A DNA stretch of 64,000 bases, from assembly GCF_054482595.1 (NCBI RefSeq), contig NZ_CM137008.1, one strand, 5' to 3'. The notes beneath the pieces are model-generated. The model was not told the origin of the DNA and made no database searches. It saw nothing but the letters and a program-made list of their open reading frames with translations. Positions within the stretch are counted from its first letter, which is position 1. The number at the start of each line of letters is the position of its first letter. Below, piece by piece: positions 1 through 41,719 of this stretch. A program made the position numbers and the translations under genes.

Positions 1-744
1 GAGAAAGAACTGAATAAAAAATATCTGGAAGAGCGTCTCAGCGATCAGCAGGATTATTATGCAAAGGCTGATGCTTTACGCAGTAACTGGAATGCCGGAC
101 TCCAGGAGGGGCTGACGAACTGGGCAGACAGTGCCACTGATTATGCTTCGCAGGCGGCAGATGCTGTCGTTTCCACTATGGACGGGCTGGTATCAAATAT
201 TTCCGATGCACTGGCCGGAAATGTTGTGGACTGGAGAAACTGGGGGAGTTCAATTCTCCAGGAAGTTTCAAAAATTCTGATGAACGCTGCCATCGTTAAC
301 GGGCTGAAGTCACTTTCCAAAAGCATGTCCGGTGCCGGAGGATGGCTTGGTACAGTCGGCGACTGGCTGTCCGGTGCAGTGGCAAACGCAAAAGGTGGTG
401 TTTATACATCGGCAAATCTGAGTGCTTACAGTAACACTATTGTGGATACACCGACGTATTTTGCTTTTGCGAAAGGTGCCGGGTTGATGGGCGAGGCCGG
501 GCCTGAAGCAATCATGCCACTGACACGGGCAGCGGACGGCTCTCTTGGGGTCAGGGCCATTGGAAATGTGAATGGTGGCGGTGGATTTGTTTATTCTCCC
601 GTGTATCACATCAGCATTCAGAATCAAGGGAGCAATGGCGAGATAGATGCGCGCTCAGCCAGGGGACTGGTGGATCTGATCGACAGCAGGGTTGTGTCAA
701 TTATGCAGTCATCACGTCGGGACGGAGGATTATGCAGTGCCTGA
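1..744 (+). CDS. H: Tail tape-measure protein, C-terminal part (lambda gpH-like); 5' end lies outside the window
   Basis: Frame 1 is open from position 1 to the stop at 742..744; the translation resembles the lambda H C-terminus; followed by M, L, K, I, J in lambda order. Confidence 0.8.
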   Translation, partial: EKELNKKYLEERLSDQQDYYAKADALRSNWNAGLQEGLTNWADSATDYASQAADAVVSTMDGLVSNISDALAGNVVDWRNWGSSILQEVSKILMNAAIVNGLKSLSKSMSGAGGWLGTVGDWLSGAVANAKGGVYTSANLSAYSNTIVDTPTYFAFAKGAGLMGEAGPEAIMPLTRAADGSLGVRAIGNVNGGGGFVYSPVYHISIQNQGSNGEIDARSARGLVDLIDSRVVSIMQSSRRDGGLCSA

Positions 745-1078
745 GTCTGAAGTTTTTAACTGGATCCCCCGCGAGGGGATGGAGACGACACGAAAGCCAT
801 CTGTTATTACGGTAAAGTTCGGTGACGGATATGAACAGCGACGGGCTGGTGGTCTGAATGCAGATCTGAAAACGTTTAAACCGGTATTTCGTGTCACGGA
901 TGAATATTCCCGTGCCGCGCTGGACAGTTTTTTATCCCGTCATGCCGGGGTTCGTGCTTTTTTGTGGCGTCCGCCAAAACACAACAGGACTGTCCGGGTT
1001 GTCTGCAGGGAGTGGAGCATTTCGGATAATGCCATGTATACCGATTTTAACTGTACCTTTGAAGAGGTCACTCACTGA
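737..1078 (+). CDS. M: Minor tail protein M
   Basis: Translation resembles lambda gpM; a GTG at 737 with GGAGG 8 nt upstream overlaps the H stop; the ATG at 692 in the ORF track would add an N-terminal extension inside H. Confidence 0.8.
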   Translation: MPESEVFNWIPREGMETTRKPSVITVKFGDGYEQRRAGGLNADLKTFKPVFRVTDEYSRAALDSFLSRHAGVRAFLWRPPKHNRTVRVVCREWSISDNAMYTDFNCTFEEVTH

Positions 1079-1776
1079 TGCAGGATATACAGCAGGAAAC
1101 ACTCAATGAGTGCACTAAAACGGAGCAATCCGCGCTGGTCGTGCTCTGGGAAATTGATCTGACAGAGGTCGGCGGAGATCGTTATTTCTTCTGTAATGAG
1201 CAGAACGAAAAAGGTGAACCAGTCACCTGGCAGGGGCGGCAGTATCAGGCCTATCCCATTCAGGGAAGTGGATTTGAGATGAACGGCAAAGGAGCCAGTG
1301 CAAGGCCAACGCTGAAAGTCTCTAATCTGCACGGCATGGTCACCGGGATGGCGGAAGACCTGCAGAGTCTGGTCGGCGGAACGGTGGTCAGGCGTAAGGT
1401 TTACGCCCGTTTTCTGGATGTGGTGAACTTCGTCAACGGAAACAGCGAAGCCGATCCGGAGCAGGAGGTGATCAGCCGCTGGCGCATCGAGCAGTGCAGC
1501 GAACTGAGCGCGGTGAGTGCCTCTTTTGTACTGTCCACGCCGACGGAAACGGATGGTGCTGTTTTTCCGGGACGTACCATGCTGGCCAACACCTGCACCT
1601 GGACCTATCGCGGTGATGAGTGCGGTTATCACGGTCCGGCGGTTGCGGATGAATATGACCAGCCGACGTCCGATATCACGAAGGATAAATGCAGCAAATG
1701 CCTGAGTGGTTGTAAGTTCCGCAATAACGTCGGCAACTTTGGCGGCTTCCTTTCCATTAACAAACTTTCGCAGTAA
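1078..1776 (+). CDS. L: Minor tail protein L
   Basis: 232-aa ORF resembling lambda gpL; its ATG overlaps the M stop (TGATG). Confidence 0.9.
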   Translation: MQDIQQETLNECTKTEQSALVVLWEIDLTEVGGDRYFFCNEQNEKGEPVTWQGRQYQAYPIQGSGFEMNGKGASARPTLKVSNLHGMVTGMAEDLQSLVGGTVVRRKVYARFLDVVNFVNGNSEADPEQEVISRWRIEQCSELSAVSASFVLSTPTETDGAVFPGRTMLANTCTWTYRGDECGYHGPAVADEYDQPTSDITKDKCSKCLSGCKFRNNVGNFGGFLSINKLSQ

Positions 1777-1781
1777 ATCCC

Positions 1782-2525
1782 ATGACAGAGACAGAATCAG
1801 CGATTCTGGCGCACGCCCGGCGATGTGCGCCAGCGGAGTCGTGCGGCTTCGTGGTGAGAACGCCGGAGGGGGAAAGATATTTTCCCTGCGTGAATATCTC
1901 CGGTGAGCCGGAGGATTATTTCCGGATGTCGCCTGAGGACTGGCTGCAGGCAGAGATGCAGGGTGAGATTGTGGCGCTGGTCCACAGCCACCCCGGTGGT
2001 CTGCCCTGGCTGAGTGAGGCTGACCGGCGGCTGCAGGTGCAGAGTGATTTGCCGTGGTGGCTGGTCTGCCGGGGTGAGATTCATAAATTCCGCTGTGTGC
2101 CGCATCTCACCGGGCGGCGCTTTGAGCACGGGGTGACGGACTGTTACACGCTGTTCCGGGATGCTTACCATCTGGCGGGGATTGAGATGCCGGATTTTCA
2201 TCGTGAGGATGACTGGTGGCGTAACGGCCAGAATCTCTATCTTGACAATATGGAGGCGACTGGTTTTTACCGTGTCGCACTGACAGAGGCGCAGCCGGGC
2301 GATGTGCTGCTGTGCTGTTTTGGTTCATCGGTGCCGAATCATGCCGCCATTTACTGCGGCGACGGCGAGCTGCTGCACCATATTCCTGAACAACTGAGCA
2401 AACGAGAGAGGTATACCGACAAATGGCAGCGACGCACACACTCCCTCTGGCGTCACCGGGCATGGCACGCATCTGCCTTTACGGGAATTTACAACGATTT
2501 GGCCGCCGCATCGACCTTCGTGTGA
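1782..2525 (+). CDS. K: Tail tip assembly protein K (predicted peptidase fold)
   Basis: 247-aa ORF resembling lambda gpK, including an HSHP motif. Confidence 0.9.
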   Translation: MTETESAILAHARRCAPAESCGFVVRTPEGERYFPCVNISGEPEDYFRMSPEDWLQAEMQGEIVALVHSHPGGLPWLSEADRRLQVQSDLPWWLVCRGEIHKFRCVPHLTGRRFEHGVTDCYTLFRDAYHLAGIEMPDFHREDDWWRNGQNLYLDNMEATGFYRVALTEAQPGDVLLCCFGSSVPNHAAIYCGDGELLHHIPEQLSKRERYTDKWQRRTHSLWRHRAWHASAFTGIYNDLAAASTFV

Positions 2526-3070
2526 AAACGGGGGCCGAAGCCATCCGGGCGCTGGCCATGCAGATCCCGGCGTTTCGTCAGAAACTGAGTGACGGCTGGT
2601 ATCAGGTACGGATTGCCGGGCGTGATGCAGGTGAAACCGAATTGTCTGCCCGTCTTAATGAGCCGCTGGCAAATGGTGCCGTGATCCACATCGTTCCGCG
2701 TCTGGAGGGGGCCAAAAGTGGCGGTGTGTTTCAGGCGGTGCTGGGTGCGGCGCTGATTGCGGTGGCATGGTGGAACCCTGTGGGCTGGCTGGGGGCCGCG
2801 GCTGTATCGGGTATGTATGCAGCAGGGGCCAGTATGATCCTGGGTGGTGTGGCGCAGATGCTGGCACCGAAAGCCAGGACGCCCACGGCAGCCAGTACAG
2901 ATAACGGCAAACAGAACACGTATTTCTCGTCACTGGATAACATGGTTGCCCAGGGCAATGTTCTGCCCGTTCTGTACGGTGAAATGCGTGTGGGGTCGCG
3001 GGTGGTATCTCAGGAGATCAGCACGGCAGATGAAGGTGATGGTGGTCAGGTTGTGGTGATTGGTCGCTGA
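2423..3070 (+). CDS. I: Tail tip assembly protein I
   Basis: 215-aa ORF resembling lambda gpI (MAATHTLPLASPGMARICLYG...); overlaps the 3' end of K in another frame. Confidence 0.85.
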   Translation: MAATHTLPLASPGMARICLYGNLQRFGRRIDLRVKTGAEAIRALAMQIPAFRQKLSDGWYQVRIAGRDAGETELSARLNEPLANGAVIHIVPRLEGAKSGGVFQAVLGAALIAVAWWNPVGWLGAAAVSGMYAAGASMILGGVAQMLAPKARTPTAASTDNGKQNTYFSSLDNMVAQGNVLPVLYGEMRVGSRVVSQEISTADEGDGGQVVVIGR

Positions 3071-3089
3071 TGAAAAATGTTTTATGTGA

Positions 3090-3118
3090 AACCGCCTCCG
3101 GGCGGTTTTGTCGTTTAT
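3090..3118 (+). terminator. Hairpin with interrupted T-tract between I and J; possible partial terminator
   Basis: ccgcc-tccg-ggcgg stem-loop followed by ttttgtcgttt. Confidence 0.35.
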
Positions 3119-3130
3119 GGAGCGTGAGGA

Positions 3131-6100
3131 ATGGGTAAAGGCAGCAGTAAGGGGCATACCCCGCGCGAAGCGAAGGACAACCTGAAGTCCACGCAGTTGC
3201 TGAGTGTGATTGATGCCATCAGCGAAGGTCCGGTTGAAGGTCCGGTGGATGGATTAAAAAGCGTGCTGCTGAACAGTACGCCGGTGCTGGACAGCGAGGG
3301 GAATACCAATATCTCCGGCGTCACGGTGGTGTTCCGGGCAGGCGAGCAGGAGCAGACACCGCCGGAGGGATTTGAATCCTCCGGCTCCGAGACGGTGCTG
3401 GGTACGGAAGTGAAATATGACACGCCGATCACCCGGACCATCACGTCTGCAAACATCGACCGTCTGCGTTTTACCTTCGGCGTGCAGGCACTGGTGGAAA
3501 CCACCTCAAAGGGGGACAGGAATCCGTCGGAAGTCCGCCTGCTGGTTCAGATCCAGCGTAATGGTGGCTGGGTGACGGAAAAAGACATCACCATTAAGGG
3601 CAAAACCACCTCGCAGTATCTGGCCTCGGTGGTGGTGGGTAACCTGCCGCCGCGCCCGTTTAATATCCGGATGCGCAGGATGACGCCGGACAGCACCACA
3701 GACCAGCTGCAGAACAAAACGCTCTGGTCGTCATACACCGAAATCATCGATGTGAAACAGTGCTACCCGAACACGGCACTGGTCGGCGTGCAGGTGGATT
3801 CGGAGCAGTTCGGCAGCCAGCAGGTGAGCCGTAATTATCATCTTCGCGGGCGCATTCTGCAGGTGCCGTCGAACTATAACCCGCAGACGCGGCAATACAG
3901 CGGTATCTGGGACGGAACGTTAAAACCGGCATACAGCAACAACATGGCCTGGTGTCTGTGGGATATGCTGACCCACCCGCGCTACGGCATGGGGAAACGT
4001 CTTGGTGCGGCGGATGTGGATAAATGGGCGCTGTATGTCATCGGCCAGTACTGCGACCAGTCAGTGCCGGACGGCTTTGGCGGCACGGAGCCGCGCATCA
4101 CCTGTAATGCGTACCTGACCACACAGCGCAAGGCGTGGGATGTGCTCAGTGATTTCTGCTCGGCGATGCGCTGTATGCCGGTATGGAACGGGCAGACGCT
4201 GACGTTCGTGCAGGACCGACCGTCGGATAAGGTGTGGACCTATAACCGCAGTAATGTGGTGATGCCGGATGATGGCGCGCCGTTCCGCTACAGCTTCAGC
4301 GCCCTGAAGGACCGCCATAATGCCGTTGAGGTGAACTGGATTGACCCGGACAACGGTTGGGAGACAGCGACAGAGCTTGTGGAGGACACACAGGCCATTG
4401 CCCGTTACGGTCGTAACGTCACGAAGATGGATGCCTTTGGCTGTACCAGCCGTGGGCAGGCGCACCGCGCCGGGCTGTGGCTGATTAAAACGGAACTGCT
4501 GGAGACGCAGACCGTGGATTTCAGCGTGGGTGCTGAAGGGCTTCGCCATGTACCGGGCGATGTCATTGAAATCTGCGATGATGACTATGCCGGTATCAGC
4601 ACCGGTGGTCGCGTGCTGGCGGTGAACAGCCAGACCCGGACGCTGACGCTCGACCGTGAAATCACGCTGCCATCCTCCGGTACCACGCTGATAAGCCTGG
4701 TTGACGGAAGTGGTAATCCGGTCAGCGTGGAGGTCCAGTCCGTCACCGACGGCGTGAAGGTGAAAGTGAGCCGGGTTCCTGACGGCGTTGCCGAATACAG
4801 CGTGTGGGGACTGAAGCTGCCGACGCTGCGCCAGCGCCTGTTCCGCTGTGTGAGTATCCGTGAGAATGACGACGGTACGTATGCCATCACCGCCGTGCAG
4901 CATGTACCGGCAAAAGAGGCCATCGTGGATAACGGGGCGCACTTTGACGGCGACCAGAGCGGAACGGTAAACGGTGTCACGCCGCCAGCAGTACAGCACC
5001 TGACCGCAGAAGTCACCACAGACAGCGGGGAATATCAGGTGCTGGCGCGCTGGGACACGCCGAAGGTGGTGAAGGGCGTGAGCTTCCTGCTTCGCCTGAC
5101 CGTGGCAGCGGATGACGGCAGTGAGCGGCTGGTCAGCACGGCCCGGACGACGGAAACCACATACCGCTTCACGCAGCTGGCGCTGGGGAATTACAGGCTG
5201 ACAGTCCGGGCGGTAAATGCGTGGGGACAGCAGGGCGATCCGGCATCGGTATCGTTCCGGATTGCCGCACCGGCAGCACCGTCGCGGATTGAGCTGACGC
5301 CGGGCTATTTTCAGATAACCGCCACGCCGCATCTTGCGGTTTATGATCCGACGGTACAGTTTGAGTTCTGGTTCTCGGAAAAACGGATTGCTGATATCAG
5401 GCAGGTTGAAACCAGCGCGCGTTATCTTGGTACGGCGCTGTACTGGATAGCCGCCAGTATCAATATCAAACCGGGCCATGATTATTATTTTTACGTTCGC
5501 AGTGTGAACACCGTTGGCAAATCGCCATTCGTGGAGGCTGTTGGTCAGCCGAGTGATGATGCGTCCGGCTATCTGGATTTTTTCAAAGGAGAGATAGGGA
5601 AAACCCATCTGGCTCAGGAGCTGTGGACGCAGATTGATAACGGTCAGCTTGCGCCTGACCTGACTGAAATCAGGACGTCCATAACGGATGTCAGCAATGA
5701 AATCACCCAGACCGTTAACAAGAAACTGGAAGACCAGAGTGCAGCGATCCAGCAGATACAGAAGGTTCAGGTTGATACAAATAATAACCTGAACAGCATG
5801 TGGGCAGTGAAGCTGCAGCAGATGCAGGACGGACGCCTTTATATTGCGGGTATCGGTGCCGGTATTGAGAACACCCCCGACGGCATGCAGAGTCAGGTGC
5901 TGCTGGCTGCAGACCGGGTGGCATTTATTAACCCGGCGAATGGTAACACCACTCCTGCACTGGTCACACAGGGCGGACAGACGTTTATTAATGAGGCGCT
6001 GATCAAGTTCCTTATTGCTCCCACGATTACCAGTGGTGGCAATCCTCCGGCATTCTCCCTGACACCTGACGGAAAGCTGACTGCTAAAAATGCGGATATC

Positions 6101-6607
6101 AGTGGCAGTGTGAATGCGAACGCCGGGGCGCTCAACAACGTCACGATTAATGAGAGCTGTACTATTAAGGGGATGCTTGATGCTAACCAGGTGCGTGGTG
6201 ATTTTGTAAAAACGACAGGGCATCGATTTCCGCACCCCGGAGAATACCCACAGGGTTCACTTACCGTTCATATTAAGGACGATCATGCCTTTGACAGGCA
6301 GATTATAATTCAACCAATCATGTACGGTGCACCACCATATTTTAGTAAAAATGATGGCGCTAATATCTACGATACCTGCAGATTAATTGTGCGCAAAAAT
6401 GGCAATGTAATCTATGACAAATCCACTAGTGGTTCGAAAAGGACAACAGTCGTGTACAGCAATATCATTGATATGCCAGTGGGGGACGGAGATGTAATAT
6501 TAACATTTGAAGTTCAGTCGAGCGGCAGTGGAGATCCCAGAACATGGATCAGTGATTTAATGGTCTCGGTAACGAAAAAAGCCGCATCCGGTATCAGTAT
6601 CAGTTGA
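3131..6607 (+). CDS. J: Tail tip host-specificity protein J with a divergent C-terminal receptor-binding region
   Basis: 1158-aa ORF resembling lambda gpJ over most of its length; the last ~120 codons are visibly AT-rich and unlike lambda J as I recall it. Confidence 0.9.
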
Positions 6608-6626
6608 AATTTTTATAACCCCAATA

Positions 6627-6653
6627 CGGGCGCCAGAAATGGCGCCTTTTTTA
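6627..6653 (+). terminator. Rho-independent terminator downstream of J
   Basis: gggcgcc-agaaat-ggcgcc hairpin followed by tttttt. Confidence 0.65.
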
Positions 6654-6676
6654 TTGCAGAAAAGCGAGAGGTAATT

Positions 6677-7276
6677 ATGCGTAAAGTTTGTGCAGCCATT
6701 TTTTCCGCAGCCATCTGTCTGGCCGTATCCGGTGCGCCTGCATGGGCGTCTGAACATCAGTCCACACTGAGCGCAGGGTATCTTCATGCCCGTACGAACG
6801 CACCCGGCAGCGATAATCTGAACGGGATTAACGTGAAATACCGTTATGAGTTTACGGACACACTGGGGCTGGTGACGTCATTCAGCTATGCAGGAGACAA
6901 GAATCGCCAGCTTACCCGTTACAGCGATACCCGCTGGCATGAAGATTCAGTGCGTAACCGCTGGTTCAGCGTGATGGCGGGGCCCTCTGTGCGCGTGAAT
7001 GAATGGTTCAGTGCGTATGCGATGGCGGGCGTGGCTTACAGCCGTGTGTCGACTTTTTCCGGGGATTATCTGCAGGTGACCGACAGCAAGGGGAAAACGC
7101 ACGATGTGCTGACCGGCAGTGATGACGGTCGCCACAGCAACACGTCTCTGGCGTGGGGGGCTGGCGTGCAGTTTAACCCGACCGAATCCGTGGCCATTGA
7201 TATTGCTTATGAAGGCTCCGGCAGTGGCGACTGGCGCACTGACGGTTTCATCGTGGGCGTCGGTTATAAGTTCTGA
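6677..7276 (+). CDS. lom: Lom outer-membrane protein (Ail/Lom family; prophage accessory gene)
   Basis: 199-aa ORF with signal peptide, resembling lambda Lom; RBS gagagg upstream. Confidence 0.9.
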
Positions 7277-7301
7277 TTAGCCAGGTAACACAGTGTTATG
7301 A

Positions 7302-7331
7302 CAGCCCGCCGGTTCAGGCGGGCTTTTTTGT
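7302..7331 (+). terminator. Rho-independent terminator downstream of lom
   Basis: agcccgcc-ggttcag-gcgggct hairpin followed by tttttt. Confidence 0.65.
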
Positions 7332-7334
7332 GGG

Positions 7335-10259
7335 GTGAATATGGCAGTAAAGATTTCAGGTGTACTGAAAGACGGCACAGGAAAACCGGTTCAGAACTGC
7401 ACAATCCAGCTGAAAGCAAAACGTAACAGCACCACGGTGGTGGTGAACACGCTGGCCTCAGAAAATCCGGATGAAGCCGGGCGTTACAGCATGGACGTTG
7501 AGTACGGTCAGTACAGCGTTATTCTGTTGGTGGAAGGATTCCCGCCGTCACATGCCGGGACCATCACCGTGTATGAAGATTCCCAACCCGGTACGCTGAA
7601 TGATTTTCTCGGTGCCATGACGGAGGATGATGCCCGTCCGGAGGCTCTGCGCCGTTTTGAACTGATGGTGGAAGAGGTGACGCGTAACGCGTCCGCGGTG
7701 GCACAGAACACGGCAGCCGCGAAGAAGTCAGCCAGTGATGCCGGCACATCTGCCCGTGAGGCGGCAACCCATGCGACTGATGCTGCAGGCTCAGCGCGTG
7801 CAGCCAGCACGTCAGCCGGACAGGCCGCGACTTCGGCTCAGGAGGCGTCTTCCAGCGCAGGAACGGCATCAACAAAGGCCACTGAAGCATCAAAAAGTGC
7901 TGCCGCTGCAGAGTCCTCAAAAAGCGCGGCGGCCACCAGTGCCGGTGCGGCGAAAACGTCAGAAACGAATGCTGCAGCGTCACAAAAATCAGCAGCCACT
8001 TCTGCATCCACTGCGACGACGAAAGCGTCAGAAGCCGCCACTTCAGCCAGAGATGCGGCGGCCTCCAAAGAGGCGGCAAAATCATCAGAAACGAACGCCT
8101 CCACAAGCGCCAGCAGTGCAGCCTCCTCGGCAACGGCGGCAGGAAATTCCGTGAAGGCGGCAAAAACGTCCGAGACGAATGCCAGGTCTTCTGAAACGGC
8201 AGCGGAACAGAGCGCCTCAGCTGCGGCAGACTCTGAGACAGCAGCTGCATCATCGGCCCGTGAGGCGTCCATTAAGGCAGAGGAGGCAGCAGTCAGTGCC
8301 ACCGCCGCCGGAAAATCGGCAGAAAGCGCCGCATCATCCGCTTCAACAGCCACAACGAAGGCTGGCGAAGCCACTGAACAGGCCAGCGCAGCAGCGAGGT
8401 CTGCTTCCGCAGCGAAGACATCCGAAACGAACGCGAAAGCGTCGGAAACCAGCGCAGAATCCTCAAAAACGGCTGCCGCATCGTCCGCCAGTTCGGCGGC
8501 GTCATCGGCATCATCTGCGTCTGCTTCAAAAGATGAGGCGACCAGACAGGCGTCAGCAGCGAGGGGCAGCGCCACGACGGCATCCACGAAGGCGACAGAG
8601 GCTGCTGGCAGTGCGGCAGCGGCAGCACAGAGCAAAAGTACGGCGGAATCCGCGGCAACGCGCGCCGAGACAGCAGCAAAACGGGCAGAGGATATTGCAT
8701 CCGCCGTGGCGCTTGAGGATGCGAGCACGACGAAAAAGGGGATAGTACAGCTCAGCAGTGCGACCAACAGCACTTCCGAGTCACAGGCGGCAACGCCAAA
8801 AGCCGTTAAGGCCGCGTATGACCTGGCTAACGGGAAATACACCGCACAGGATGCAACGACAGCACAGAAAGGGATAGTTCAGCTCAGCAGTGCGACTAAC
8901 AGCACTTCCGAGTCACAGGCGGCAACGCCAAAAGCCGTTAAGGCCGCGTATGACCTGGCTAACGGGAAATACACCGCACAGGACGCTACGACAGCACAAA
9001 AAGGAATTGTCCAGCTCAGTAGTGCAACCAACAGCACATCTGAAACGCTTGCTGCGACACCGAAAGCAGTGAAAGCAGCTAATGACAATGCGAATGGTCG
9101 GGTACCTTCTGCCCGTAAGGTGAATGGTAAGGCGCTTTCAGCGGATATAACACTGACGCCGAAAGATATTGGTACGCTTAACTCAACAACAATGTCATTC
9201 AGCGGTGGTGCTGGTTGGTTCAAATTAGCAACGGTAACCATGCCACAGGCGAGTTCTGTTGTTTCAATTACGTTGATTGGTGGCGCTGGATTTAACGTGG
9301 GGTCACCTCAACAGGCAGGTATATCTGAACTTGTTTTACGTGCAGGTAATGGTAATCCGAAGGGGATTACTGGTGCTTTATGGCAGCGCACATCGACAGG
9401 GTTTACAAATTTTGCCTGGGTCAATACATCTGGTGATACTTACGATATTTACGTTGCAATCGGAAATTATGCGACTGGTGTAAATATTCAATGGGATTAT
9501 ACCAGTAATGCCAGCGTGACGATTCATACGTCACCAGCATATTCTGCTAATAAGCCGGAAGGGTTAACGGACGGTACAGTTTATTCACTCTATACGCCAT
9601 CAGAGCAGTTTTATCCGCCTGGCGCACCAATCCCGTGGCCATCAGATACCGTTCCGTCTGGCTATGCCCTGATGCAGGGGCAGACTTTTGACAAATCTGC
9701 CTACCCGAAACTTGCAGCCGCTTATCCGTCAGGCGTGATCCCTGATATGCGTGGCTGGACGATTAAGGGCAAGCCCGCCAGTGGTCGTGCCGTATTATCT
9801 CAGGAACAGGACGGCATTAAATCGCATACCCACAGTGCCAGTGCATCCAGTACGGATTTGGGGACGAAAACCACATCGTCGTTTGATTACGGCACTAAAT
9901 CCACGAATAACACCGGAGCGCACACCCATAGTGTCAGTGGTACGGCTGCTTCTGCAGGGGCACATACACACACGGTTGCCTGTTACCCATCTGGCAATAC
10001 CGAGCAGGGCGATAAAGCCCTCAAAGGTGCGTCTCGTGCAGGCTCGAGTACTGGCACATCGTCAGCCGGAGCGCATACCCACCCGGTGTCAGGTACTGCT
10101 GCAAGTGCAGGTGCACACGCGCATACTGTCGGTATTGGTGCTCATACGCACTCCGTTGCGATTGGCTCACACGGACACACCATCACCGTTAACGCTGCTG
10201 GTAACGCGGAAAACACCGTCAAAAACATCGCATTTAACTATATTGTGAGGCTTGCATAA
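7335..10259 (+). CDS. stf: Side tail fibre protein (Stf-like) with Ala/Ser/Thr-rich shaft, 44-aa tandem repeats and His-rich C-terminal repeats
   Basis: 974-aa ORF; N-terminus resembles lambda Stf; long low-complexity A/S/T region; three 44-aa repeats; C-terminal GAHTHxV repeats. Confidence 0.85.
8739..9134 (+). repeat. Three tandem copies of a 132-bp (44-codon) unit inside stf; copies 1 and 2 nearly identical, copy 3 diverged
   Basis: Units begin at 8741, 8873 and 9005 (gatagtacagctcagcagtg... / gatagttcagctcagcagtg... / gaattgtccagctcagtagtg...); each encodes [25 protein letters not shown]. Confidence 0.85.
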
Positions 10260-10843
10260 TGGCATTCAGAATGAGTGAACAACCACGGACCATAACAATT
10301 TATAATCTGCTGGCCGGAACTAATGAATTTATTGGTGAAGGTGACGCATACATTCCGCCTCATACAGGTCTGCCAGCAAACAGTACCGATATTGCACCGC
10401 CAGATATTCCGGCTGGCTTCGTGGCTGTTTTCAACAGTGATGAGGCATCGTGGCATCTTGTTGAAGACCATCGGGGTAAAACAGTTTATGACGTGGCATC
10501 AGGGAACGCGTTATTTATTTCTGAACTCGGCTCATTACCGGAAAATGTTACCTGGTTATCCCCGGCAGGGGAGTTTCAGAAGTGGAACGGCACAGCCTGG
10601 GTGAAGGATACGGAAGCAGAAAAACTGTTCCGGATCCGGGAGGCGGAAGAAACAAAAAACAGCCTGATGCAGGTAGCCAGTGAGCATATAGCGCCGCTTC
10701 AGGATGCTGTAGATCTGGAGATCGCAACGGAGGAAGAAAACTCGTTGCTGGAAGCCTGGAAAAAGTATCGGGTGTTGCTGAACCGTGTTGACACATCAAC
10801 TGCACCTGATATTGAGTGGCCGGAAGAACCAGACACAATGTAA
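10259..10843 (+). CDS. tfa: Tail fibre assembly protein (Tfa)
   Basis: 194-aa ORF resembling lambda Tfa; its ATG overlaps the stf stop (TAATG). Confidence 0.9.
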
Positions 10844-11189
10844 GCGAAAAAGAAAAACCGCAGACACGACGTATGCAGGACGTGCTGCGGTTGGCTGGTG
10901 AACTTTCGATAGTGCGAGTATTGAATGATTTCCAGCCGTTACCGATTTTATATAACTGCAGTGGAATTATTCAACACACAGGCAAAACGGAATAAGCTGA
11001 GAAAAAAGCGTGCTTTCCCAATCTGGGGCAAATCACGTCTGAATGACACCTGAAAACAGGTGGTGGACTCAAGACGGCTTGGAATATTCTTCTTTAATGT
11101 TATGTAATTCATTGATTTTTCGTGTACGATTTTAAGACATTTATTCCAAGAAAAATTTTTAACTCTTTGATTTTTCGACTCTGTATCAT

Positions 11190-20663: not shown

Positions 20664-21292
20664 TATGTATTCCCTTGTGATTATAATCTTCATGAATATA
20701 TCAATAAGTGCCGTTATCCAAAAAAAAGCACATTTGGATACTATTCTATGAAGTTCATTTTATTTTAAAGATTACATGTAACAAATGTATTTAAAAGATT
20801 TCAAAATGTTTCTAATCTATTTAATATAATTTAGAATTATGAATTCTAAATATAAATATTCATGAAAATTATAAATGTATATCAATATGTTATGAGTTGA
20901 GCGGAAGCATAGGGGGTATCAATGATTGTTGCGCCAAACGGCTGGTGTGATCACGCGCACATTAATGAAGGCATAAAAAAAAGCCGGCATCATGCCGGCC
21001 CAAAAAATATAAACAAGACGATAAAAGGCTAATAACGGAGGCATCATGACACAGAAAAATAAAAAGGTATAATTGTATTCAGTGCTAATATATTGATTAA
21101 ATGAATTAATAAAGCCGATCTCAAAGATAAATAAAATCGCTCAAAACGATTTTTCCTGTATTCACTGCCGTTGCGCAAAAATTATCTATTTGTTCAAAAA
21201 ATGAGTGAGTCTTGACTGGCTCATCCAATGTGGAAAAATGTGACTTTTATCACATAATAGTACTAAGTCTGAATTTTCCGGGTTATCTCAAA

Positions 21293-29420: not shown

Positions 29421-29508
29421 AACACATCAGATTTCCTGGTGTAACGAATTTTTTAAGTGCTTCTTGCTTAAGCAAGTTTAATCCCGACCCCCTCAGGGTC
29501 GGGATTTT
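29421..29508 (+). ncRNA. dsrA: DsrA small regulatory RNA (Hfq-dependent; activates rpoS translation, antagonises hns)
   Basis: aacacatcagatttcctggtgtaacgaattttttaagtgcttcttgcttaagcaagttt.atcccgaccccctcagggtcgggattt matches DsrA as I recall it (one possible mismatch); ends in a GC hairpin plus U-tract. Confidence 0.9.
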
Positions 29509-34651: not shown

Positions 34652-35116
34652 TTATCGCAGAATGAAAGCGGTATACAGCACGTCGGTGACATCCTGTTTC
34701 GGTTGCCCGGCAACAAGCGGGGTGGAAAGTGTGGCTTTAATCTCAGCAATCAGGCTTTTCTTGCCTTCTTCTGTCGCCAGTACGGCAGCATCCTGACGCG
34801 AAAACAGTAACAGCAAGCGGCTACGGACTTCCGGCAAATACTCACTTAGCCGCGAGCGGGTAGCTTCATCTTTTAGCCGCAGAGTTATGCCGATATAAAG
34901 CACGCGATCCGCATCACCCAAATTGACCGTAAAGGTATCCAGCGCATAGAAGACCGGGGAGGGCACGACGCGTTGCTGCGCTTTGTCGTCAGCGGCAACC
35001 TGATGCGAATGCCAGTAGCTGTAACCTGCGCTGGCACAGGCCGCGAGGGTAATGAATACCAGAATCGGGATCCAAAGCGATCGCTTGCTTTTCTTGCTTA
35101 TCGCGTAATCAGTCAT
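34652..35116 (-). CDS. fliL: Flagellar basal-body-associated protein FliL
   Basis: 154-aa ORF with one TM segment. Confidence 0.95.
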
Positions 35117-35220
35117 GTGTTGCGGTCTTCCTGTGTCGCTACTGCTTATCGGCTAATTATCCTGCGTCTTGAACGCAACAAAGCGGGGAAAAGACGCGGA
35201 TTACGGTGCTACCTCTGACG

Positions 35221-36348
35221 TTAGGCGAAAATATCAACGCCACTGTTGCCTGTTACGCGCCCTTGTAAAGAGACGGGAACCGGAAGCGCATCGTCGTCTT
35301 CACCCGCCAGAGGTTCATGATTTGCTGTGCTCTGGCTTTGCTGTTGCTGTGAAGCGGCCTGTTGCTGACCACTAAAGCTTTCGCCACTGATGTTGCTTTG
35401 CCCTAACTGAATGCCACTTTCTGCCAGCTGCGTACGCAGTACCGGTAGCGCAGCTTCCAGCGCGGCGCGTACGTGCTGATGCGGTGACACCATCTGGATT
35501 TGCGCCTGGCTATCATCCACTTTGAGGGAGATTTGTACTTCACCTAAATCCTGCGGGTGCAGACGCAACTCTGCGCTTTGTTGCCCCTGGCGGGTAAACA
35601 GCGAAATATGCTGGCTTAATGATTGTTGCCATTCGTGAGAACCCAGCGGCGCACTCAAAACAGGTGCTGCGACGGTGGGCAGCGGCTGTGTCTGGTGCGG
35701 AGTGATGAGCGGGCTGACGGCAGCGGTCACCGGCGAAGGTGTGCTGATGACTTCCGCTTTACTCTGGGCCTCTGCTACCAGCGGTGTTACTGGCTGAGCT
35801 TGCGCGTCAGGGGCGTCATCAGGCGGTGCGGTTGTGAATTGCGCCGTAGTCAGTTTTGTGTAGAGAGTTGGTTTCTCTGTCGGTAACACGGTTGACGGCG
35901 CATCAGCCACTTTGGGCGTATTGTCAAAACCCGGCAACATCGCAAAAAGGGCGCTCAGGCTTGCGGTGACGTCTTCATTAAGCTCATCTGCTTTTTCGTC
36001 TTTTGTCGTATTTTTGTCAGCCACCGCAGCCAACGTCATCGTCTGAGCGGTGGTTAACGGTGTTGATGTGGATTGTTCGTCGTTGATGACAGGCGGTATT
36101 TCATCCTCAGGGATCAGTAAATCCGCTTGTTGCACATCGGAAAGAATATCGCTAACCAGCGGCTCACCTTTTGTTGTGGGTTTATCTGTTGCCACCAGCA
36201 ACTGAGGGGCCGCTTTGTCGGTTGTTGTTTCACCTGCTATTGCTCCACTCAACAATGCGAGAAAATCTTGTGCAGCATCGCTGGCTTTACCGCCGGGCAA
36301 TATGGCGGTGTCAACGTCAGCGGTAATCACGGGCGCTAAGCGAATCAT
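35221..36348 (-). CDS. fliK: Flagellar hook-length control protein FliK
   Basis: 375-aa Pro/Gln/Ala-rich ORF. Confidence 0.95.
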
Positions 36349-38180: not shown

Positions 38181-41505
<3,325 letters not shown>

Positions 41506-41719
41506 CGCGCACCTCGTGGCTGATTATGGACGGCGTTATTGGCAAAGTGGAACAAGACTCACTCCCGGGTCAGCAAACTCGAAAAATTGACGCTCCCATT
41601 ATTTGTGCTTTCTTTTTTTTCTATCCGCCAATAAACCCGTTTTTTTGTTGCTATTTAGCGCCTTTGTCTTATTGACTTACTGGTAGGCTTTGCTACCAGA
41701 AATTATCCGGGAGATGAAA

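Follow-up and report, generated by a model that had tools for sequence, protein, structure and literature searches.

The lom gene of this prophage is probably carried on an accessory unit made up of its ribosome site, the coding sequence and the terminator that follows it (terminator 2), placed directly behind another terminator (terminator 1) that is a feature of the J-stf junction and independent of lom. The genes distal to J would be reached by Q-dependent read-through of both elements, and no promoter belonging to lom is recognisable. Taken as a whole, this is the arrangement that we hold to be likely. The analysis covers a single stretch of 64,000 nucleotides, called the window throughout.

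The distal end of the prophage, which is lambda-like, occupies the window from position 1 to about 11000, and the rest is E. coli chromosome. The genes of the prophage part run in the order K, I, J, lom, stf, tfa, and its Pfam matches are the GpJ domains, Ail_Lom, a tail-fibre N-terminal domain and the tail-fibre assembly protein. The region 6300-7700 is 100% identical to E. coli O157:H16 Santai and to other genomes. The features are itemized in Table 1. Three tandem units of about 45 aa are found in Stf (window 8650-9150), where Pfam PF03406 matches three times. A full-length match to the Rfam family IS009 (RF02111; 222 bits, window 10602-10800, + strand) lies wholly within the tfa coding sequence, and this 'small RNA' family has seemingly been modelled on part of a prophage tail-fibre assembly gene. 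The host small RNA genes rseX and DsrA are located at 20976-21065 (- strand) and 29421-29507 (+ strand), respectively.

Table 1. Features of the J-lom-stf region and of the corresponding Santai prophage
Feature	Position	Strand	Description and basis
J (tail tip / host specificity protein)	3131..6607	+	1158 aa; open reading frame, Pfam GpJ domains, PGAP gpJ in identical genome
Terminator 1, J-distal	6628..6655	+	Hairpin GGGCGCCA-GAAA-TGGCGCCT, then TTTTTT-ATT; motif, folding, conservation
lom leader	6656..6676	+	Ribosome site GAGAGG (6666-6671); left end of the insertion/deletion unit
lom (Ail/Lom family outer-membrane beta-barrel protein)	6677..7276	+	199 aa; Pfam PF06316
Palindrome in lom-stf spacer, 5' of terminator 2	7286..7298	.	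Perfect, 13 nt, TAACACAGTGTTA; read from sequence
Terminator 2, lom-distal	7303..7329	+	Hairpin AGCCCGCC-GGTTCA-GGCGGGCT, then TTTTTT; right end of the insertion/deletion unit
stf (side tail fibre)	7332..10259	+	Ribosome site GGGGTGA 7332-7338, start ATG 7341
tfa (tail fibre assembly protein)	10259..10843	+	Final gene of the late operon; Pfam PF02413, PGAP
Santai (L168) locus, terminators and frameshifted genes	27985-27966, 17895-17879, 16455-16440, 35021-35264, 40561-41611		Outside the window

Terminator 1 begins 20 nt past the J stop codon (6605-6607). Its stem comprises 8 bp (6628-6635 paired with 6640-6647), six of them G-C, closed by the four-nucleotide loop GAAA, and the T-run at 6647-6652 continues as ATT. 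The predicted folding energy is -15.7 kcal/mol (z = -3.4), and none of 200 shuffled sequences was equally stable. Terminator 2 begins 26 nt past the lom stop (7274-7276). It has an 8 bp stem with seven G-C pairs (7303-7310 with 7317-7324), a 6-nt loop GGTTCA and a T-run at 7324-7329, and folds with -18.6 kcal/mol (z = -3.7), again with 0 of 200 shuffles as stable. The 5' flanks of both elements are not A-rich, indicating that they are unidirectional and act rightward.

A strict definition of a terminator (a stem of 7 bp or more without mismatches, 5 or more of its pairs being G-C, and T at no fewer than 5 of the 6 positions that follow) returned eight sites on the two strands of the 64 kb, among them the terminators of DsrA and rseX, which provide a positive control for the scan. 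Exactly two of the sites fall within 1-11000, and these are terminators 1 and 2; the expectation from dinucleotide shuffles of that region is 0.01 per strand. They occupy the only two intergenic gaps there, on the coding strand. It might be supposed that hairpin and T-run coincide here by chance and have no function, as a loose consensus scan was not enriched (9 sites, compared with 7.5 expected from shuffles). This is ruled out by the strict-scan enrichment and by covariation (see below), together with conservation over hundreds of loci, and we assign it a negligible probability. At gathering and E-value thresholds Rfam placed no known RNA family at either terminator, and a sub-threshold Trp_leader match over terminator 2 was taken as chance.

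For the comparison some 160 related loci were taken from IMG/VR, to which lambda and phage Ayreon were added. A contig profile search using a two-sequence Lom alignment gave just six loci and did not help to extend the comparison to wider taxa. Three types of Lom occur among the relatives (199, 206 and 207 aa), with identities of 48-61%. A hairpin with its T-run ends 29-32 nt before the lom ATG in 148 loci (29-30 nt in all save two); in five more the lom start had been miscalled, and the same hairpin is visible. The position of terminator 1 is thereby kept across all three Lom types; the sequence of the hairpin varies among them. An alignment of 18 rows, taken from the 199- and 207-aa types with the lambda rows excluded, reveals the nature of this variation. 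Three of the eight stem pairs have changed on both sides and none on one side only, and 94% of the alignment cells are paired, compared with 38-56% when the partner strand is slid. At one of these pairs 8 rows have G-C and 10 have A-U; at another, 14 have C-G and 4 have U-A. A further version of the stem, GGGTGCC/GGCACC, is present in the set chosen by the N-terminus of Stf. One locus (L155, about 1440-1475) has unrelated DNA with opposite-strand open reading frames in place of the first arm of the terminator 1 stem (the 5' arm), and only a 5-bp remnant hairpin is left, so that a rearrangement breakpoint is located within the stem.

Of 155 loci, 142 have terminator 2 no more than 120 nt from the lom stop. 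The exceptions include a group of eight (the L140/L053 group) with a common longer spacer which, where read, ends in a different hairpin of 13 bp with a T-run directly before the stf ribosome site. Variation within terminator 2 consists of single changes preserving wobble pairs only, and the variants have unrelated hairpins in the same place. The element is nearly invariant and belongs to a block, running from the last 25 codons of lom through spacer, hairpin and T-run to the ribosome site and start of stf, in which even lambda and the window hardly differ. The case for structural selection as judged from the alignments is consequently weaker for terminator 2 than for terminator 1. Nearly every locus, whichever of the three Lom types it carries, retains the 13-nt palindrome upstream of terminator 2; the palindrome might bind a protein or form a weak hairpin. 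Among 75 related stf loci, chosen by the N-terminus of Stf, 73 have a terminator directly 5' of the stf ribosome site, with or without lom.

The hairpins might instead be kept mainly as 3' stability or processing elements of the late mRNA, or as recombination linkers at the boundaries of mosaic modules. Homology between lom-bearing and lom-less forms does break at the T-run of terminator 1, the block running from the last 25 lom codons through terminator 2 to the stf start is near-identical across Lom types of 48% identity, and one locus has its rearrangement breakpoint in the stem of terminator 1. Yet a linker would require conserved sequence, and what is observed is compensatory change together with replacement by unrelated hairpins with T-runs (in lambda, Fels-1 and the L140 type), which points to selection on terminator shape. 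Moreover the T-run, needed for termination and not for stability, is always present. While such roles are compatible with termination, as the main reason for conservation they seem to us highly improbable. By sequence comparison both motifs qualify as canonical intrinsic (Rho-independent) terminators, evidently under selection for structure. The preliminary description had placed good terminators immediately after J and after lom, and in this it is borne out by the motifs themselves and by the agreement of the strict scan, folding and conservation.

The relationship of the two terminators to lom becomes apparent from phages that lack the gene. Downstream of the J stop, phage 21 and PhiR63_1 have the spacer and the hairpin of the window unchanged, then TTTTTTATT, and directly after it the stf leader TGTGGAGTGAATATG. 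Terminator 1 with its T-run thus stands immediately before the stf ribosome site in these phages, and homology between the window and the lom-less junctions ends exactly after TTTTTTATT, between positions 6655 and 6656. An 80-nt query spanning the lom-less junction has a full-length match in 1186 of 5426 complete E. coli genomes, and in other E. coli genomes it matches only up to TTTTTTATT; the lom-bearing form is present in 3744 of the 5426. This tight query replaced one of 341 nt, which might join pieces across the 669-nt gap. The leader of lom is virtually invariant in loci of the 199-aa type, with one-base differences in 2 of 32 variants. The mobile unit would therefore comprise the 21-nt leader with its ribosome site, lom, the spacer and terminator 2, extending from about 6656 to 7329 (674 bp). 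Because phage 21 and PhiR63_1 carry the identical element without lom, terminator 1 is judged from these alignments to be part of the J-stf junction and not of the lom cassette, and to predate lom. The unit adjoins the T-run of terminator 1, so the order terminator, ribosome site, stf persists whether or not lom is present. Terminators have been noted at these places before: the phage 21 record annotates the J-stf element as 'terminator', and both elements are annotated in phage Ayreon.

The product of lom matches Pfam PF06316 over residues 1-199 of 199 (E = 3.8e-120, 399 bits with a cut-off of 23) and is 48% identical to lambda Lom. Comparison of window 7200-7360 with lambda (L002, 1510-1670) shows almost identical DNA from the last ~25 codons of lom to the stf start. 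Because the 3' end is near-identical to lambda while Lom overall is only 48% identical, lom is by this comparison a mosaic, with a recombination boundary that should lie inside the gene. Like the morons (HK97 gene 15 type; Juhala et al. 2000; Cumby et al. 2012, PMC3594210), lom is a non-essential gene among conserved late genes, present or absent at the same position, with its own downstream intrinsic terminator, and encodes a cell-envelope protein useful to the host. The textbook moron has in addition its own promoter and a deviant G+C content, whereas for lom sequence prediction over 6560-6672 detected no promoter, and its G+C of 56.3% resembles that of its flanks (55.7% in J and 55.4% in stf).

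Promoters were sought with a simple sigma-70 weight matrix, calibrated on the whole window and blind to promoters that are activator-dependent, use another sigma factor or are very weak. Between 6560 and 6672 one of 540 candidates reached the top 1% of the background (at 0.99%), where about five are expected by chance, and no site between 6900 and 7335 is in the top 0.3%. A consensus promoter scan agrees, with none at the upstream junction of lom or at its 3' end. Thus no sigma-70-like promoter was found in the 3' end of J, in the 21-nt lom leader or in the 3' end of lom. Neither of the promoters that had been envisaged is found: that of lom itself, for which 6608..6676 was to be checked, is represented by the single top-1% site, below the chance expectation, and for one embedded in the 3' end of lom and serving stf (7200..7334) there is no site in the top 0.3%.

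Several promoter-like sequences in the neighbourhood were considered and rejected. The matches within J are better than those at the junction: TTGACA at 6291, whose spacer is 19 nt long, a TATAAT at 6304-6309 that is perfect in itself and has no usable -35 element, and AGGACA-17-TATCAT at 6440-6468. As lom promoters these sites (6291-6321 and 6440-6468) were discarded, being specific to this variant of J, at chance frequency and upstream of terminator 1; neither lambda nor the other types have conserved equivalents. The sequence TGGCGC...TTGCA around terminator 1 was read as a possible sigma-54 promoter and dismissed, as GG is separated from GC by 13 nt instead of 10. A PhoP box, suggested by PagC, lacks a TGTTTA repeat, and the small RNA of Phi24B near lom (PMC4426718) lies in another genomic context and does not apply.

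These results bear upon the possibility that lom is an autonomous, insulated unit, with a constitutive promoter between terminator 1 and the ATG or overlapping them, that is expressed in the lysogen independently of the late operon. The gene is accessory and polymorphic for presence or absence, according to reviews lambda lom is expressed in the lysogenic state (PMC7067206, PMC3594210), and the lambda T-run region TTTTATTATAAA holds TATTAT, a five-of-six match to the -10 consensus for which the window has no equivalent. Against this, just 24 nt separate the last T of the T-run (6652) from the ATG, 21 of them belonging to the cassette, and any -35 element would fall inside the hairpin. The best score in 6560-6672 lies within the top 1% of the background, with fewer hits than chance would give. 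Terminator 1 occurs also in phages without lom, the G+C of the gene (56%) is the same as in J and stf, and lom was not detected in one array study of a lambda lysogen (PMC2147009). We therefore regard an autonomous lom as unlikely. Of the suggestion that lom is a self-contained cassette bracketed by terminators, the accessory character stands, the gene being present or absent at this position; terminator 1 lies outside the cassette, and no promoter is seen.

The literature reports little about the lom promoter. The reported expression of lom in lambda lysogens implies that part of its transcription there does not depend on Q. In the present prophage lysogenic expression of lom, if any, most likely arises by leakage through terminator 1 or from a promoter that is invisible to a consensus search; the transcripts could come from weak starts inside J that leak past terminator 1, or from an unconventional promoter.

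The start of stf has been revised. The GTG at 7335 given by the open reading frame tool was replaced by the ATG at 7341 (MAVKISG...), which is shared with PGAP in the identical genome, with lambda orf-401 and with phage 21. The gene had been thought to begin 4 nt after the second terminator; the ATG is in fact 11 nt after the last T of its T-run. Even with the corrected start there is too little space for a promoter between terminator 2 and stf, as originally argued.

The wider setting of the region can be seen in the Santai prophage, which is 100% identical. By annotation the antiterminator gene Q is encoded on the same strand, some 21 kb upstream, and the genes from Q to tfa are all co-oriented, which fits a late operon of the lambda type. 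A tR'-like hairpin with a T-run is found 66 nt after Q, and two further terminators stand on the coding strand within the late operon, one ahead of the major tail gene and the other between the T gene and that for the tape measure. Given the tR'-like element, the two inside the operon and the two beside lom, internal terminators are the rule in the late operon of this prophage, and therefore no special mark of lom.

In lambda, polymerase that has been modified by Q is not stopped by the terminators within the late operon. The lambda PR' mRNA is 27 kb long (PMC10695390), and lom is strongly expressed in the lytic cycle of lambda (PMC9836094). The present prophage resembles the Q-antiterminated pR'-tR' system of lambdoid phages in its co-oriented Q with a hairpin and T-run behind it, and in the long run of lysis, head and tail genes on one strand with internal terminators. 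There is no difference in principle; Q and pR' lie outside the window, and their activity is assigned by analogy with lambda. With a co-oriented Q, a tR'-like terminator and operon-internal terminators, Q-dependent read-through would therefore explain the expression of stf, and thus no promoter inside lom need be invoked. Read-through had been one of two options offered for stf, and it is the one that this context favours.

We propose that during lytic growth the Q-modified polymerase, having started at pR', would pass every internal terminator, the two beside lom included, and co-transcribe J-lom-stf-tfa on a single long late mRNA, as it does in lambda. In the lysogen, with no Q, the terminators would halt ordinary polymerase and the distal accessory genes would be quiet. 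Terminator 1 would then shield lom from stray transcripts of the head and tail genes, and terminator 2 would shield stf-tfa from transcripts that reach lom. In Santai the annotation records frameshifts in the integrase and in a cro-like gene, and because of this the prophage may be defective, in which case Q-driven expression might never happen.

The arrangement as such is already known, being the J-lom-stf (orf-401) layout of lambda. Lambda shares the gene order, a hairpin with a T-run ends 29 nt before the lambda lom ATG, and the post-lom terminator, ribosome site and stf start are near-identical to those of the window. In contrast, the lambda counterpart of terminator 1 has an unrelated and weaker hairpin, CGTCCG-GGAA-CGGGCG (6 bp, -9.7 kcal/mol), with an interrupted T-run. 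The C-terminal domain of J also differs, and lambda stf is intact and longer (972 aa). Rho-independent terminators distal to lambda J, the t'J series, were reportedly described by Luk and Szybalski in 1983. Phage 21 and PhiR63_1 share the stf leader and start as well as terminator 1 with the window, and differ in having neither lom nor terminator 2, the 674-bp unit 6656-7329 being absent. Salmonella Fels-1 has a different hairpin with a T-run in the same position between J and stf. What is new here is modest, namely the exact boundaries of the cassette and the independence of the upstream terminator from lom.

Five loci, L140 (at about 2121-2270), L053, L136, L138 and L143, have an additional segment of ~145 nt between the lom stop and stf. 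It contains an extended -10-like sequence TGGTATAAT (TGTTATGAT in L053) about 35 nt past the lom stop, and in L140 and L053 it closes with the 13-bp hairpin and T-run in front of the stf ribosome site. Judged by its sequence, the segment may give rise to a short transcript of its own, about 100 nt long. No Rfam family matched the segment.

A more far-reaching view, possible but doubtful, is that in its common form lom is promoter-less, with its level in the lysogen set solely by leakage through terminator 1, and that the junction of T-run and ribosome site is a preferred docking site at which cassettes are swapped at the T-run. Such cassettes may consist of a ribosome site, a gene and a terminator, or of a small-RNA-like module as in the relatives of the L140 type.

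The significance of these observations beyond careful annotation is small. Knowing where the cassette begins and ends (6656-7329), and that lom apparently lacks a promoter, should help in turning the J-stf junction into a site for cargo and in designing a study of lysogenic lom expression. The observations also correct a tempting inference, that terminators on both sides of a gene mark an autonomous unit with its own promoter; in Q-antiterminated late operons internal terminators are normal.
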